Sequence record: PQ850594.1
Reading direction: 5' to 3' (one strand)
Source: Escherichia phage AnnaHegner_Bas87
DNA: 64,000 bases
In this document: positions 31,335 to 44,048 of the stretch, in pieces
How positions within the stretch are numbered: the first letter of the stretch is position 1
How the letters are laid out: each line of letters begins with the position of its first letter
Notes under the pieces: generated by a model
Told to the model about the DNA's origin: nothing
Seen by the model: the letters and a program-made list of their open reading frames with translations, nothing else
Databases searched by the model: none
Made by a program: the position numbers and the translations under genes

Positions 31335-31899
31335 TAATCCACTCTAAATCCTCAACTGCCTCTTCTACAGAACGGTCATTAAAGAGGAGGTAGGTTGGTA
31401 GGTTTGTTCCTTCAATATAAGAACGGGAGTCTCCTTCAAAGGAGCAGCCATCGCGGAGAATCTGAACTACTCGAACATGGAAGTGTTTCTCTAGTTCTTC
31501 AACTTCTGCTTTAAATCCACCATCAGAGAAGACGATAACATCATTCTGTGATGGGATACGTTGTTGAATACTGCTAACAGCAAGTTTACCCATGCAGGTC
31601 TCACCAAACATAGGCTTCAGGTAATTCTCGCTAGTTGCAATCATCAAGTCTCGAACTGACTTACCGTCCCATTCAGGACGGCTATGTTCTTTCCACTCAC
31701 GGTCGTTGTACAGCTCCATGAACTCGTAAAGAGGTAGACCTAATGCAGCAGCAGCCACTCGATACATAGGCTCCTTAAAAGCCTTTACATGCGGCCTAAA
31801 CTCGGTGTTACCAAGTGTTTTCTCTAACCAAGAATTAGCGATTGTATCTTTACCACAACCCGGTGGTCCATTCAGAATTACTACTAATGGTTTACTCAT
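31303..31899 (-). CDS. P-loop nucleotide kinase (dNMP kinase candidate)
   Basis: Walker A GPPGCGKDT at N-terminus; 198 aa. Confidence 0.5.
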   Translation of the reverse strand: MSKPLVVILNGPPGCGKDTIANSWLEKTLGNTEFRPHVKAFKEPMYRVAAAALGLPLYEFMELYNDREWKEHSRPEWDGKSVRDLMIATSENYLKPMFGETCMGKLAVSSIQQRIPSQNDVIVFSDGGFKAEVEELEKHFHVRVVQILRDGCSFEGDSRSYIEGTNLPTYLLFNDRSVEEAVEDLEWIIEGTRRGLYV

Positions 31900-32549
31900 T
31901 ATTGAATCATCCCTTGAAGATCTTCTTTATCAAAGTGCTTCTCTACTACCGCTTCATACAGATCACGATTCTCTGAATAACGACGATAGAAGGTTCCGTG
32001 TGAAATTCCCAACTCTTGCTGGATGTGATCATGTGGGATGCCGAGAAAGAGCATTGAGAACATGCTTGCCATCTTACGGTTTTCCATAATGTCACTCAGG
32101 TCTTGGAAGAAGAAAAAGATTCTAGATTCCAAGAACGGGTCTCCAGTAGAATCATGCTTATCCATCGCAATCTCTAAAGGACTTTCCCATGAATTCATCT
32201 CAGGAGGTCTAAACATATCAGCCTCTGGAATAGAGTAGATACGTCGGTCTCCAACTGTCTGACGATTAGAACGAATCGACCAGATGATATTCTTGACACG
32301 ATAAGTCATGTGCTCAATATCTTTTTCATCAGTGAGCAGAAGTTCTTCTTGCTTTGCAAATACAAAACGCCAAGCGTTCAGTAACACTTCCTGAGCAACA
32401 TCCTCTGCCTCGTGATAATCTTTAATGTCATACATAAAATACTTATGCACAACTTTCCAGTTCTCTCGATAAAATTCATCGAAGGTTGGATAATATTTAA
32501 TAGGAATGCCATGAATACGATAGCGTGTGGGTGTTGTCTTCTTCTTCAT
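31899..32549 (-). CDS. phage-encoded sigma factor (sigma-70 family, ECF-like)
   Basis: region-2-like ...[15 protein letters not shown]... and C-terminal HTH-like ...[17 protein letters not shown]... Confidence 0.55.
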
Positions 32550-32573: not shown

Positions 32574-32798
32574 TTAAACTACACAGAACAAATATATTGC
32601 TGTGTCAGGACAAGGGATGTGATCACTAGGTTGCCTAATTCTATCCCATTCATCATCTTCTGCTATATAATAAGCCCAATAAGACTCACCATCGTTGATG
32701 AAGAATTTGAATGTTCGTCCCCAAATCTGATTATTATGTTCCCATACTGCATGAAATTGAGTAACACCTTCTGGTATTGTAAGTTCCGCTCTGATCAT
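32574..32798 (-). CDS. hypothetical protein
   Basis: 74-aa ORF. Confidence 0.3.
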   Translation of the reverse strand: MIRAELTIPEGVTQFHAVWEHNNQIWGRTFKFFINDGESYWAYYIAEDDEWDRIRQPSDHIPCPDTAIYLFCVV

Positions 32799-33094
32799 TG
32801 TATTCCTCTCTCCTTGAGAGCTTTAAGTAAACCATTATGGTTAGCAGCACAGGTTGTATAATTATCCTGATACCACTCAAGTGTTGTTGCAAATGCCACT
32901 CCCTGTGCACTCTGAAGTAAAGGGAGGTCTACATCACATTCAGCTTTTAGGTTTGTTGGTAAGGGCATTAGCTGCCTGCTGTTGTCGCTCATTGAACAAG
33001 CCATCAAACTAGAAGCGAGCAAAATCACCAAACAACTCTTTTGCTTTTTCTTTGTAAGCATTTTCTGCACCTTCTTGAGTGCTATGATAACCAA
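32795..33094 (-). CDS. lipoprotein, outer-membrane spanin (Rz1-like) candidate
   Basis: signal peptide with lipobox LMAC; likely start at internal Met (33061); overlaps 3' end of HNH gene. Confidence 0.4.
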   Translation of the reverse strand: MVIIALKKVQKMLTKKKQKSCLVILLASSLMACSMSDNSRQLMPLPTNLKAECDVDLPLLQSAQGVAFATTLEWYQDNYTTCAANHNGLLKALKERGIQ

Positions 33095-33533
33095 GCCAAA
33101 TTACTTTGTTTTGATATCCGATACGAGCACTCCATTTATTAATATCTGACCTGTATCCTACACCTTTTATTCCAGTTAAAGAGTTCTTTTGAACTATTTT
33201 ATTGGCATTGTTGAGGACAGGTGTTGCTTTTCTTAGATTGCTCCAAGAGTTATTAGACTTATCTAAATCTTTATGGTCTATTTGGAAATCGGGAATTTCT
33301 CCAGTTTTTATATACCAAGCAACTCGGTGAGCTTTGTATGTCTTTCTCTGAAAATTCAATGTTACATAACCAGCTTTTGTTTTACACCCTGCAACCTTTC
33401 CTGCGAGTCTTGAGTTCCACTGAGCGCTCTTATCTTTAGAATGTTTCCAGTACAGAAGACCGGAAGCCTCGTCATAAGACAGATATTTAATTAATTCTTT
33501 AATTTCAGTGCCTCCGCTGCTTGTTGTTGTCGT
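33009..33533 (-). CDS. HNH-AP2 homing endonuclease; N-terminal region lacks a canonical start codon
   Basis: open frame reads ...LSYDEASGLLYWKHS...AGYVT-NFQRKTYKAHRVAWYIKTGEIP...IDHKDLDKSNNSWSNLR... then AP2-like domain; only in-frame ATG/GTG/TTG is TTG at 33359. Confidence 0.55.
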   Translation of the reverse strand, partial: TTTTSSGGTEIKELIKYLSYDEASGLLYWKHSKDKSAQWNSRLAGKVAGCKTKAGYVTLNFQRKTYKAHRVAWYIKTGEIPDFQIDHKDLDKSNNSWSNLRKATPVLNNANKIVQKNSLTGIKGVGYRSDINKWSARIGYQNKVIWLGYHSTQEGAENAYKEKAKELFGDFARF

Positions 33534-33856
33534 TCATTGAAAAGTCCTACATACTCATCGCTAGCACACACATTGTAAAAAACTGGCTTAGTCTTTTCAT
33601 AATGCATCTCTTTGTAAATAGTTTCCGTGTTCTTCTTCCAGTTTGATAAACCAGTTAGAACTTTCTGAGCCACTTCATCAGCAGCCCTAGCCCTCTCAAT
33701 CTCTATCTCGTGCTGCTTCTTCTCTTGGTCAAGAGTGTTGCTATCATTTCGATATTGCTCAAACTTCATTCCACCAAAGAAAATAAGAGCTGTGAAAATA
33801 AGAAAGCCTATATTGTTTTGAAGCTTTTCCATTTTAACTCCAACGAAAAAAGCCAC
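33491..33856 (-). CDS. inner-membrane spanin (Rz-like) candidate
   Basis: N-terminal TM helix then charged coiled coil; 121 aa. Confidence 0.4.
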   Translation of the reverse strand: MAFFVGVKMEKLQNNIGFLIFTALIFFGGMKFEQYRNDSNTLDQEKKQHEIEIERARAADEVAQKVLTGLSNWKKNTETIYKEMHYEKTKPVFYNVCASDEYVGLFNERQQQAAEALKLKN

Positions 33857-33868
33857 CCAAAGGTGGCT
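33843..33868 (-). terminator. rho-independent terminator (minus strand)
   Basis: AGCCACC-CAAA-GGTGGCT hairpin followed on minus strand by TTTTT. Confidence 0.45.
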
Positions 33869-33890
33869 AAGCTATTACAAGGAGAGATTC

Positions 33891-34631
33891 TTAGAATGGA
33901 GAGTCATCCTCTTCAAAGGTTGATTGCGGCTCTTCATTAATGGTAGGGATGCTTGGAGTAGCATCTTTCTGTTCAGTGTCAGAAGCTTTAGTAACTTCAC
34001 GACCAGCCAGAGGGATATTCTTAGCATCGTTAGCTTGAGTCAAGAGGCTACGTTGGAATGGGAAGATTGCTTGATAAGCAGCTAAGTTAGCGTCAGTCTC
34101 AGCATACGGTTCGAAGAAGATCAACTCACTACGAGGAGCACCTACCGCGTCACGATATTTAGTCGGGATTGGAGTGATGCTTTTAATGGAGTTTTTCTTC
34201 TCACCAGCTTTGTTTACATAGGAATTAACCAGAATGTTAACAGGCTGACCTAACAGCATATCTTTAAACCAACCCAAATCACCTTTCAGTGCTTGAACAC
34301 TTGGGTCGATCATTTTAATCAGATTTAGAATACCAGAGTTCTTAGCTCGTGGATTTACATCGAAAGATTTAAACTGGCAAGCAGGACGAGGGTCCAGAGG
34401 TTTGCCTTCATTATCAGTCCCTGTTGCATCTACGCCAATCAGCTCAAAAGCTAAGTCCATACGGAAAGCTGGATTCTTAGGAGTAACTGCTTTGGTTTTA
34501 GGGTCAATCCAAGGGTCACGATTGTGAACACCCAAACCTACAACACGAACAATACGTGCTTCGTACTCACCATCAGGGATTACATCGTAGTTGGATTTAC
34601 GGGATACAGACAGTTCAGGGATCATAGACAT
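33891..34631 (-). CDS. ssDNA-binding protein candidate (acidic C-terminal tail ending in Phe)
   Basis: 246 aa; C-terminus ...STFEEDDSPF resembles SSB/gp2.5-type tails; otherwise unverified. Confidence 0.4.
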   Translation of the reverse strand: MSMIPELSVSRKSNYDVIPDGEYEARIVRVVGLGVHNRDPWIDPKTKAVTPKNPAFRMDLAFELIGVDATGTDNEGKPLDPRPACQFKSFDVNPRAKNSGILNLIKMIDPSVQALKGDLGWFKDMLLGQPVNILVNSYVNKAGEKKNSIKSITPIPTKYRDAVGAPRSELIFFEPYAETDANLAAYQAIFPFQRSLLTQANDAKNIPLAGREVTKASDTEQKDATPSIPTINEEPQSTFEEDDSPF

Positions 34632-42765: not shown

Positions 42766-43074
42766 TTAGATAACCTTGTGCTTGTAGGTGTTAGGTTTGT
42801 AGTAATGCAACCAGTTTATGTGTTGCTTCTGTTCAAGGTAGTGCCTGCAATCATGACAAAAAGCATGACCCAAACCTGTTTCCTCGTTCAGCTTGAAATT
42901 GATAAGAAGCTTCTTCTTTTGACAGAAGCTACATACTTTAGTGGGCTTCACGTAGTGCGTCCCATGAGATTGGGAAAAGTTTACGAAGCTCTTCATCAAC
43001 AGTTGATGCGAATAAACGCACTTCGTATTGAGCATGGTCTGACAGACGTTGACGACACAACTCTGACCAACCAA
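42766..43074 (-). CDS. Cys-rich zinc-ribbon-like protein
   Basis: CSFCQ...CHDCRH motifs; 5' end overlaps ThyX gene in another frame, start uncertain. Confidence 0.3.
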   Translation of the reverse strand: MVGQSCVVNVCQTMLNTKCVYSHQLLMKSFVNFSQSHGTHYVKPTKVCSFCQKKKLLINFKLNEETGLGHAFCHDCRHYLEQKQHINWLHYYKPNTYKHKVI

Positions 43075-43588
43075 ATAAAGACCCTGTCCACACCCACTCA
43101 GTGATCATGCCCTGAGGCAATACGAATCGAGCTTGCTCTGGAGCGATAAACTTAATCAATTCATCATACGACTCAAGAGCTGTTTCGTATGCCCGATTAA
43201 TCAGAACTAGTGCAGAGTTTTGTGCTCCTGTGGTGAGGAGATTCCCCGCACCTGCATGGAGGTCCGAAGGTCTTTCAAAAATCTCTTTAGGGATGAAGAG
43301 TTCAACTGCTCCATCTTTATACCGCCGGGACATTTCGTTCCATGAGAATCCAACTTGGTGTTTATTGAGTTGTCTAGCAATTGCAATGGGAGCCTTACAC
43401 CGAAAGGTGATTTGAGGGTGTCGAAAAGGAGTCACATGACGTTCCCGAGCTAAGAATTTAATCAACCGCTCGTCACGTTCGTTCAGATCACCATCTCGTG
43501 TCACACCAAAGGAAACCCTTGCTGCATTGACCACAGATTTGTCGGAACCCATGTGCTCTACCAGTGTTGCTTTTAAAAAATCAGACAT
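42938..43588 (-). CDS. thyX: flavin-dependent thymidylate synthase (ThyX)
   Basis: ...TPFRHPQITFR...ARQL.KH....SWNEMSRRY ThyX-like signature. Confidence 0.65.
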   Translation of the reverse strand: MSDFLKATLVEHMGSDKSVVNAARVSFGVTRDGDLNERDERLIKFLARERHVTPFRHPQITFRCKAPIAIARQLNKHQVGFSWNEMSRRYKDGAVELFIPKEIFERPSDLHAGAGNLLTTGAQNSALVLINRAYETALESYDELIKFIAPEQARFVLPQGMITEWVWTGSLFGWSELCRQRLSDHAQYEVRLFASTVDEELRKLFPISWDALREAH

Positions 43589-44048
43589 ACTTCAACTTCT
43601 CCTTGTTGTAAACTTCTTCTGCCTCTTCGCAAGAAGCAAAAGTCCCTAAATGTATATTCTTACCTTTGACGCCAATGATGGCTCGGTATCTATCACCAGA
43701 AGTTGTCTTACGAAGATACACACCCCTAGGAAGATTTCCTATCTTGCTATCAACATCATACTGCTTTCTGTTATGGCAGTTAGTGGATGGATTTACATCT
43801 CTTAGGTTATCAATCGAATCATTAAGTTTGTTCTGGTCGATGTGGTCAATTTCAAACTCAGGAAACTTTCCATGAACAAAGAACCAAGCAAGGCGACAAG
43901 CTCTGTAGCTTTTCCCTTCATACTCAATATAACGATAACCTAGAGAAGATACATATCCAGCTTGATTCCCTTTAACCCTTCGACCTTTTGTGTTCTTCCA
44001 GAAGAAGGCTCCAGTCTTAGGGTTATATTCCAAGTCATCTTGTATCAT
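43581..44048 (-). CDS. HNH-AP2 homing endonuclease
   Basis: N-terminal ...YNPKTGAFFWK...AGYV..LGYRYIEYEGKSYRACRLAWFFVHG...IDHID... plus AP2-like ...DRYRAIIGVKGKNIHLGTFASCEEAE... Confidence 0.65.
   Translation of the reverse strand: MIQDDLEYNPKTGAFFWKNTKGRRVKGNQAGYVSSLGYRYIEYEGKSYRACRLAWFFVHGKFPEFEIDHIDQNKLNDSIDNLRDVNPSTNCHNRKQYDVDSKIGNLPRGVYLRKTTSGDRYRAIIGVKGKNIHLGTFASCEEAEEVYNKEKLKYV

Follow-up and report, generated by a model that had tools for sequence, protein, structure and literature searches.

An HNH-AP2 endonuclease cassette between the spanin genes of phiEco32-like coliphages, with replacement ends for both spanin genes and a candidate AUU start

The genome of Escherichia phage AnnaHegner_Bas87 (PQ850594.1), analysed here as a stretch of 64,000 nucleotides (nt) that we call the window, contains a reading frame for an HNH-AP2 endonuclease between an Rz-like and an Rz1-like spanin gene. 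This frame has no ATG, GTG or TTG codon ahead of its conserved N-terminus. How did such a gene come to lie between two spanin genes, and where would its translation begin? An earlier, sequence-only reading of this DNA had offered two alternatives: a homing endonuclease that recently entered the spanin locus and is expressed through a non-canonical start or through coupling, or a decaying pseudogene. The explanation that we favour, with a probability of roughly 0.6, is that a free-standing HNH-AP2 homing cassette has split the overlapped Rz and Rz1 genes, has brought new gene ends with it, and starts its own translation at AUU. The genes of the locus are all on the minus strand, and its main elements are as follows.

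33491 to 33832, minus strand: coding sequence of an Rz-like i-spanin, 113 amino acids (PHROG_1152, Rz-like spanin, E 1.3e-33)
33009 to 33503, minus strand: coding sequence of the putative HNH-AP2 homing endonuclease, 164 amino acids when read from ATT (PHROG_99, residues 2-163, E 3.7e-58)
32795 to 33061, minus strand: coding sequence of an Rz1-like o-spanin, 88 amino acids (PHROG_2425, E 1.6e-22)
33002 to 33548, minus strand: mobile cassette, 547 nt (alignment with the empty-site phages 4E8 and IME267)

The flanks of the locus were matched in 95 records of E. coli and Shigella podophages from the phiEco32-like group (Gordonclarkvirinae: Kuravirus, Suseptimavirus), the closest match to the region being phage Bas86, with 95.6% identity over 2.3 kb. 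When 50,697 records were searched, the insert was found in just 6 distinct phage genomes; ten records matched, eight of them standing for those genomes or their duplicates and the other two for a weak partial match, in a Salmonella phage. Most relatives covered 78% of the query, with about 545 nt missing, and some 85 of them are insertion-free. The junctions were set by a scripted anchored comparison (a MAFFT alignment of filled and empty loci misplaced the gap). The comparison with insertion-free relatives, which had been suggested as a check on the boundaries, defined a 547-nt cassette at 33002-33548. It replaces the dinucleotide CA between GATGAGTATGT and GCTTGTTCAA of the empty site, a net gain of 545 nt. 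Identical junctions and exactly 547 nt in place of CA were observed in 8/8 filled genomes, which fall into three lineages, and a ninth filled genome, the metagenome contig L011, has the same 5' junction.

In the empty phages, the two spanin genes form an overlapped pair: Rz ends with DEYVSLFNERQQQAASALTNKPKS and a stop, and Rz1 begins within Rz, in the +1 frame, as MKRLSQFFTMCVLAMSMSAC followed by SMSDN. The insertion point is two codons before the lipobox Cys. An insertion inside this overlap would destroy both genes, an outcome that is avoided because the cassette carries substitutes for both gene ends. The sequence-only reading had missed these replacements. They and the remains of the native ends are located as follows.

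33491 to 33548, minus strand: replacement Rz 3' end, VGLFNERQQQAAEALKLKN and stop (Rz tails compared between filled and empty genomes)
32940 to 33008, minus strand: relic of the native Rz tail, FDGLFNERQQQAANALTNKPKS and stop, directly after the HNH stop
33547 to 33600, minus strand: relic of the native Rz1 signal-peptide reading frame, MKRLSQFFTMCVLAMSM and stop, inside Rz (compared with the empty-site Rz1)

The replacement Rz tail occupies the first 58 nt of the cassette, the last 19 Rz codons (from 33548 on) being cassette-derived. It is a recoded copy of the native tail VSLFNERQQQAASALTNKPKS, which ends in a stop; its LFNERQQQAA part repeats the native copy with mostly synonymous changes. 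The two copies are visible as an imperfect direct repeat (33507-33566 and 32962-33021, spacing 545, 70% identity). At the other end of the cassette, the last 17 HNH codons encode in the +1 frame a new Rz1 signal peptide, MLTKKKQKSCLVILLASSLMAC, which is preceded by GAAGG, shows a positively charged start, a hydrophobic core and a lipobox, and is fused to the unchanged mature Rz1. It lies at 33061-32996, with the lipobox Cys codon at 32998-32996. Outside the cassette, filled and empty genomes show no difference in the Rz tail or in the Rz1 signal peptide. The C-terminus of the HNH protein, AYKEKAKELFGDFARF, fits the family consensus AY..KAKELFGEFA, which suggests that the endonuclease frame is ancestral and that the signal peptide was overprinted on it. 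As for the relics, the native Rz tail has been kept since the same DNA encodes mature Rz1, and the native Rz1 signal-peptide frame is closed by a TAG formed at the 5' junction. Were the cassette lost through simple recombination between the repeats, Rz1 would have no signal peptide.

This anatomy bears on the idea of an intron that splices itself out and encodes the HNH protein, the mature Rz being joined from a first exon and the downstream tail. In Bas86 (PQ850622.1, 1169-2061), the Rz-like spanin is indeed annotated as a two-piece joined coding sequence across HNH, excision of 545 nt (33548-33004) restores an in-frame Rz together with the intact old Rz1 signal peptide, and the closest solved structure, I-HmuI, is that of an intron-encoded enzyme. 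However, the Rz tail and HNH together account for 540 of the 547 nt, so that about 7 non-coding nt remain and a ribozyme core has no space, and an Rfam scan of 32700-33950 with E up to 10 returned no group I or group II match, just weak and unrelated matches to small RNAs. Moreover, the upstream Rz frame has its own tail and stop, of a type conserved in three lineages, and the new Rz1 signal peptide comes with a Shine-Dalgarno (SD) sequence; both replacement ends would be pointless if the RNA was spliced. We consider splicing extremely improbable.

The filled genomes were sorted into lineage A (the window, Bas86, SU7 and PAS59; HNH identity to the window 100-90%), lineage B (E20-1, EK010, KM01 and contig L011; 66%) and lineage C (the Logan contig L010; 86%). 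In every lineage, both the Rz tail and the Rz1 signal peptide are replaced, the latter by MHIKKKLLSCTGILLAFSLSAC, from GTG, in lineage B and by MLIEKKQKSCLVILLAASLAAC in lineage C. Lineages A and B each span phages assigned to different genera. The window and Bas86 have identical cassettes (0/547 mismatches), and the nearest flank differences are at -12 and +11; their flanks differ at 44 of 1100 positions on one side and at 57 of 600 on the right. With flanks that diverge by 5.9%, about 32 mismatches would be expected over 547 nt, and none was observed, while the right flank shows only 13/600 mismatches to the empty phage 4E8. As the cassette is identical to that of Bas86 while the flanks differ, it must have moved recently. 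A homing element whose co-conversion tracts are very short is expected to give such a pattern. The HNH cassette thus displays presence/absence polymorphism at one site together with lateral spread. The earlier description of the endonuclease as recently inserted holds for the copy in the window, and does not hold for the cassette itself, which is old: it is present as three lineages separated by synonymous divergence (dS) of at least 0.5.

Further copies were sought in metagenomes. Our scan gave one more copy at the same site (L011, of lineage B) and 79 distant homologues elsewhere, and a search of IMG/VR for further copies returned one unrelated locus with 29% identity. As a separate observation on the right flank, positions from about 32600 to 32735 (+266 to +400) are 75-83% identical to Bas86, SU7 and PAS59 and 97-100% identical to 4E8, a pattern of a mosaic boundary in or beside the small gene 32574-32798.

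We then come to the endonuclease gene itself. As had been reported for the window, the HNH frame is open from 33533, after a TGA stop at 33536-33534, and remains so to the TAG at 33011-33009. Its first canonical start codon is the TTG at 33359, codon 58 of the open frame; ahead of it the translation reads LSYDEASGLLYWKHS...AGYVT, with the upstream part given by GGTEIKELIKYLSYDEASGLLYWKHS before AGYVT, and is clearly HNH-like. The motif L.YD..G..W in this N-terminal part is kept across the HNH family. Counted from the ATT, the part in question is the following.

33360 to 33503, minus strand: 48-codon N-terminal part upstream of TTG 33359 (dN/dS, pLDDT, conserved motif)

Pfam HNH_3 is matched with E 6.6e-14 and 51.7 bits against a cut-off of 24.8 bits. 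The Pfam AP2 match (E 2.9e-6, 27.9 bits) is under its cut-off of 33.3 bits, and is backed by a search of the family profile against the PDB (AP2 domain of WRI1, E 9.7e-11) and by Foldseek, with which the C-terminal third of the model matched the AP2 domains of TEM1 and ERF1 with root mean square deviations of 1.3-1.7. Among 24 sequences, no substitution was seen at D86, H87 or N99, and conservation of N108/N111 is at least 90%. The AlphaFold 2 model built from these 24 sequences has a mean predicted local distance difference test score (pLDDT) of 92.6, with 96-98 in the N-terminal extension; the only disordered part of its N-terminal region is the first four residues of the open frame. The best structural match by Foldseek is I-HmuI (1u3e; 108 columns, 28% identity, E 6.9e-4, probability 1.00). 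The profile match to I-HmuI (E 2.8e-8) covers the 65-column HNH motif at the sequence level, which is shorter than the 108-column structural span. In the model, the extension resembles the N-terminal half of I-HmuI. Judging from these matches, the protein would be an HNH homing endonuclease with an AP2 domain, and cleavage of the empty allele is predicted.

Selection was measured as the ratio of non-synonymous to synonymous substitution rates (dN/dS, Nei-Gojobori) over codons 7-48, the part that precedes the first canonical start and is outside the Rz overlap. It is 0.05-0.16 there, compared to 0.06-0.09 in the core, with dS between cassette lineages from 0.5 to more than 1.6. By this measure the extension is under purifying selection like the core. 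The frame counts 164 codons without gaps, and no stop or frameshift was found in the nine copies. Is the gene nevertheless a decaying or domesticated remnant, neither mobile nor expressed? It has no canonical start, and as both spanins depend on the cassette its loss would be hard, so that it could persist without nuclease activity. Such a remnant would hardly have come through dS above 1 between lineages with an intact frame in all nine copies, dN/dS of about 0.1 throughout and intact catalytic residues, nor would its identical cassette be expected in divergent backgrounds and sporadically across genera. We find a remnant very improbable, and the purifying selection, the invariant catalytic residues, the confident fold and the PHROG_99 alignment lead us to reject the decaying pseudogene that had been offered as an alternative.

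If the gene is intact, where does its translation begin? A sequencing error that removes a start codon, which had been raised for the window, is excluded by the same start-less arrangement in 8 other independent assemblies; likewise, relatives were checked for a canonical HNH start, and none is present upstream of the conserved N-terminus in the nine genomes. The first canonical codon of the open frame is codon 16 in lineage B, 46 in SU7 and PAS59, 56 in lineage C and 58 in the window and Bas86, and the existing gene calls from those codons give 152, 128, 100 and 116 amino acids, respectively. By contrast with these scattered codons, a single arrangement is found in all nine genomes, illustrated here for the window.

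33511 to 33515, minus strand: Shine-Dalgarno GGAGG, 7 nt before ATT (read from the sequence)
33501 to 33503, minus strand: ATT, proposed non-canonical HNH start (conserved codon position)

In lineages A and C, GGAGG is followed after 7 nt by ATT, and in lineage B AGAGGG is followed at the same distance by ATC, which makes five genomes with ATT and four with ATC at the same codon. This codon is seven residues before the L of the LSYD motif, and aligns with Met1 of the closest full-length homologue (P0004, 47% identity, 165 amino acids). As a control, start codons were examined at 80 metagenomic loci, of which one was L011 itself and seven had alignments that began too late, so that 72 distant homologues were judged. 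An ATG was present 4-20 codons before the motif in 69/72; only one had a canonical codon other than ATG and two were cut by a contig end. Since the distant homologues mostly have ATG, the missing start is peculiar to the lineage at the spanin locus and is not a property of the family. In E. coli, AUU and AUC initiate at 1-2% of the level of AUG, and the only confirmed AUU genes are infC and pcnB (Hecht et al., bioRxiv 10.1101/063800). Translation of HNH most likely begins at AUU 33503-33501, and at AUC in lineage B, as far as the sequence can tell. The exact-site polymorphism, the transfer seen with Bas86 and the conserved SD with ATT or ATC support the earlier proposal of a homing endonuclease that entered the spanin locus and is translated from a non-canonical start or by coupling.

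It could be argued that a downstream canonical start is used instead (TTG 33359 in the window, GTG in SU7 and PAS59, GTG or ATG in lineage B) and that the upstream frame is untranslated. The GenBank and metagenome calls of 116, 128, 152 and 100 amino acids all follow this choice, by which lineage B would lose only 12 residues. But the canonical codons are at four non-homologous positions (16, 46, 56 and 58), and the region that would be left untranslated has a dN/dS of 0.05-0.16 in the HNH frame, a pLDDT of 96-98 and a motif common to all homologues. In addition, the PHROG_99 alignment begins at residue 2, and a start at 33359 would cut away part of the I-HmuI-like sheet. Taking both sides together, we regard downstream initiation as unlikely.

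No start codon would be needed if a -1 ribosomal frameshift from Rz gave an Rz-HNH fusion, and the frames allow it: HNH is in the -1 frame relative to Rz, with an overlap window of 8-14 codons. Lineage B has U_UUA_AAA in the Rz frame. In lineages A and C, GGAGG is followed 10 nt later by A_AAG, with a spacing as in dnaX. However, no slippery heptamer is common to the lineages, U_UUA_AAA being found in B only and A and C having only A_AAG. By the established topology of spanins, the Rz anchor of such a fusion would put the nuclease in the periplasm, away from DNA, and the homologues are separate proteins, each having a Met of its own at the same position. Production by frameshifting seems to us quite unlikely, and we retain initiation at AUU or AUC as the preferred mode.

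Several points weigh against the explanation that we prefer. The direction of the event, insertion and not deletion, rests on sequence and has no strict proof. Initiation at AUU or AUC is suggested by the conserved codon; the ATT falls within two Rz codons, and dual coding accounts for part of its conservation. In lineage B, the GTG or ATG 12 codons further in could serve as a start. The cleavage specificity and the target of the enzyme are predictions. Finally, folds of about 106 nt around the start in four genomes were no more stable than shuffled sequences (z from -0.38 to +1.45). A regulatory hairpin at the start was considered and rejected: the SD is in a stem in some of the four genomes, but the pairing is not conserved and the energies are like those of shuffled sequences. 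In the minimum-energy fold of 33455-33520, GGAGG pairs with GCUUCC about 50 nt downstream, in the EASG codons; similar pairing of GGAGG is seen in SU7 and L010, and may be due to chance, with a stability like that of shuffled sequences.

The course of events that we propose is then as follows. The cassette would have homed into the Rz/Rz1 overlap of phiEco32-like coliphages. Its 5' end would give the recoded last codons of Rz and a new stop, and the 3' end of HNH, in the +1 frame, would provide Rz1 with a complete new signal peptide and lipobox, so that overlapped spanins would become a separated pair with the endonuclease gene between them. The endonuclease would be made from the full-length frame, with an I-HmuI-like N-terminal sheet, the HNH motif and a C-terminal AP2 domain, from the AUU at 33503-33501, 7 nt after GGAGG. 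The Rz stop is 10 nt downstream of the ATT, and ribosomes terminating there may aid initiation or reinitiation at the HNH start. Such a weak start would keep the yield of the endonuclease deliberately low, as would suit a nuclease. When a carrier and a cassette-free phage infect the same cell, the endonuclease would nick or cut the intact Rz/Rz1 overlap of the latter, and the cassette would be copied into this site during repair. The nick or cut is predicted near GATGAGTATGTCAGCTTGTTCAATGAG, in the empty allele only; the carrier would be spared, with its own target split and the duplicated half recoded. A stronger version of this proposal, which in our opinion could go either way, is that the lineage has committed itself to the AUU or AUC start, perhaps coupled to Rz, as a long-kept throttle on a toxic nuclease, that the signal peptide was overprinted de novo on the C-terminal helix of AP2, and that the spanins have become dependent on the selfish element.

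The closest precedent is in T5-like phages. The spanins of T5 are overlapped, and in the T5-like phages Shivani and phiR201 a GIY-YIG homing endonuclease gene is located between the spanin genes; the differences are confined to the very C-terminal end in the i-spanins and to the lipoylation signal in the o-spanins, and such an event must leave a functional signal sequence (Kongari et al. 2018, PMC6139136). As there, a homing endonuclease gene separates otherwise overlapped spanins at the present locus, with the same differences in C-terminus and signal. Unlike the T5-like case, the enzyme is of the HNH_3 plus AP2 type and not GIY-YIG, the insert is 545 nt instead of about 700 bp, and the hosts of the element are podophages of the Gordonclarkvirinae. 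The signal peptide inside the endonuclease reading frame, the recoded duplicate of the Rz tail and the absence of a canonical HNH start come in addition. The present locus is an independent example of the published type of insertion. This type was already known, and it is the conserved lack of a start codon that is unusual; what we add is the exact anatomy, the evidence of recent transfer, and the conserved lack of a canonical start with an SD and AUU or AUC in its place. The SU7 genome paper and the BASEL paper are silent on the locus, and our search of the literature returned no paper that connects AUU starts with homing endonucleases.

The protein has its N-terminal sheet and HNH motif in common with I-HmuI, a nicking HNH enzyme of Bacillus phage SPO1. 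The gene for I-HmuI is located in a group I intron, and its product binds DNA with a helical, helix-turn-helix-containing C-terminal part, whereas the gene described here is free-standing and encodes AP2. HNH-AP2 endonucleases of phages and cyanobacteria were reportedly described by Magnani et al. in Plant Cell in 2004. The order of HNH followed by AP2 appears to be the same in our protein. Another parallel is mobE, which is said to split nrdA in Aeromonas phage Aeh1 (work attributed to Friedrich et al. in 2007 and to Gibb and Edgell in 2007 and 2009). There too, a free-standing HNH gene is located in an essential gene that still functions, and translation of the endonuclease is restrained, as we propose here. 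The mobE case differs in that one gene gives two polypeptides and a hairpin sequesters the ribosome binding site, whereas here two overlapping genes are concerned and the restraint would come from a weak start codon. Finally, infC and pcnB resemble the HNH gene in having an SD followed by AUU and a low or regulated expression, which for HNH is a prediction; lineage B differs from them in that it would use AUC.

The locus is a clean natural case of a selfish endonuclease gene that entered two overlapping essential genes in a phage that survives. It explains one route from overlapped to separated spanins, a question raised for T5-like phages by Kongari et al. If the AUU or AUC start is true, a conserved phage case joins the very short list of non-canonical starts in E. 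coli systems, and a new mode of restraining the expression of a homing endonuclease would be at hand. For annotation, the current records misannotate all three genes, with HNH at four false starts, Rz1 without its lipobox, and Rz joined once.

The spanin genes deserve some further remarks. In the sequence-only reading, the HNH frame overlapped the 3' end of the Rz-like gene and, with its own 3' end, the lipoprotein reading frame. Both overlaps stand, the Rz stop at 33493-33491 lying inside the open HNH frame. The gene starts given at the time, GTG 33856 for Rz and TTG 33094 for the lipoprotein, do not: Rz is likely to start at ATG 33832 and Rz1 at ATG 33061. For Rz, this choice is favoured since GTG 33856 is inside a terminator-like hairpin and relatives have a 342-nt Rz, which is annotated in SU7, PAS59, E20-1 and EK010. 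The hydrophobic stretch IGFLIFTALIFFGG of Rz is an N-terminal membrane anchor, as in an i-spanin. A lipobox as in an o-spanin can be read in Rz1, as MLTKKKQKSCLVILLASSLMAC followed by S in the window and as LSAC or LAAC in the other lineages. Rz and Rz1 are thus predicted to be a two-component spanin pair, with a putative role in disruption of the outer membrane. In most related records, the o-spanin is a 57-amino acid hypothetical protein begun after the lipobox Cys, the signal peptide thus being lost; the 88-amino acid form is annotated, as O-spanin, in SU7 only.

The terminator-like hairpin with its T run (AGCCACCTTTGGGTGGCT TTTTT) is at 33851-33868 on the minus strand, between the preceding 246-amino acid gene and the Rz start. 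The lysis and HNH genes would then need read-through or a phage-specific promoter missed by the sigma-70 scan. The spanin block is closely followed downstream by the minus-strand open reading frame 31899-32549, which relatives annotate as an RNA polymerase sigma factor of the extracytoplasmic function type; its position is consistent with phiEco32-like control of transcription.

The window contains a second HNH gene, at 43581-44048, which the sequence-only reading had listed as an intact HNH-AP2 paralog. It exists, begins with ATG and is 33% identical to the gene at the spanin locus. This HNH_3 gene, on the minus strand, encodes 155 amino acids and overlaps the start of a ThyX-like thymidylate synthase gene (42938-43588) by 8 nt. 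Its region is patchy among relatives: at least 80% of a 1.6-kb query was covered only in ECBP2, EK010 and E20-1, and most others covered about 56%. It is probably a second homing cassette.

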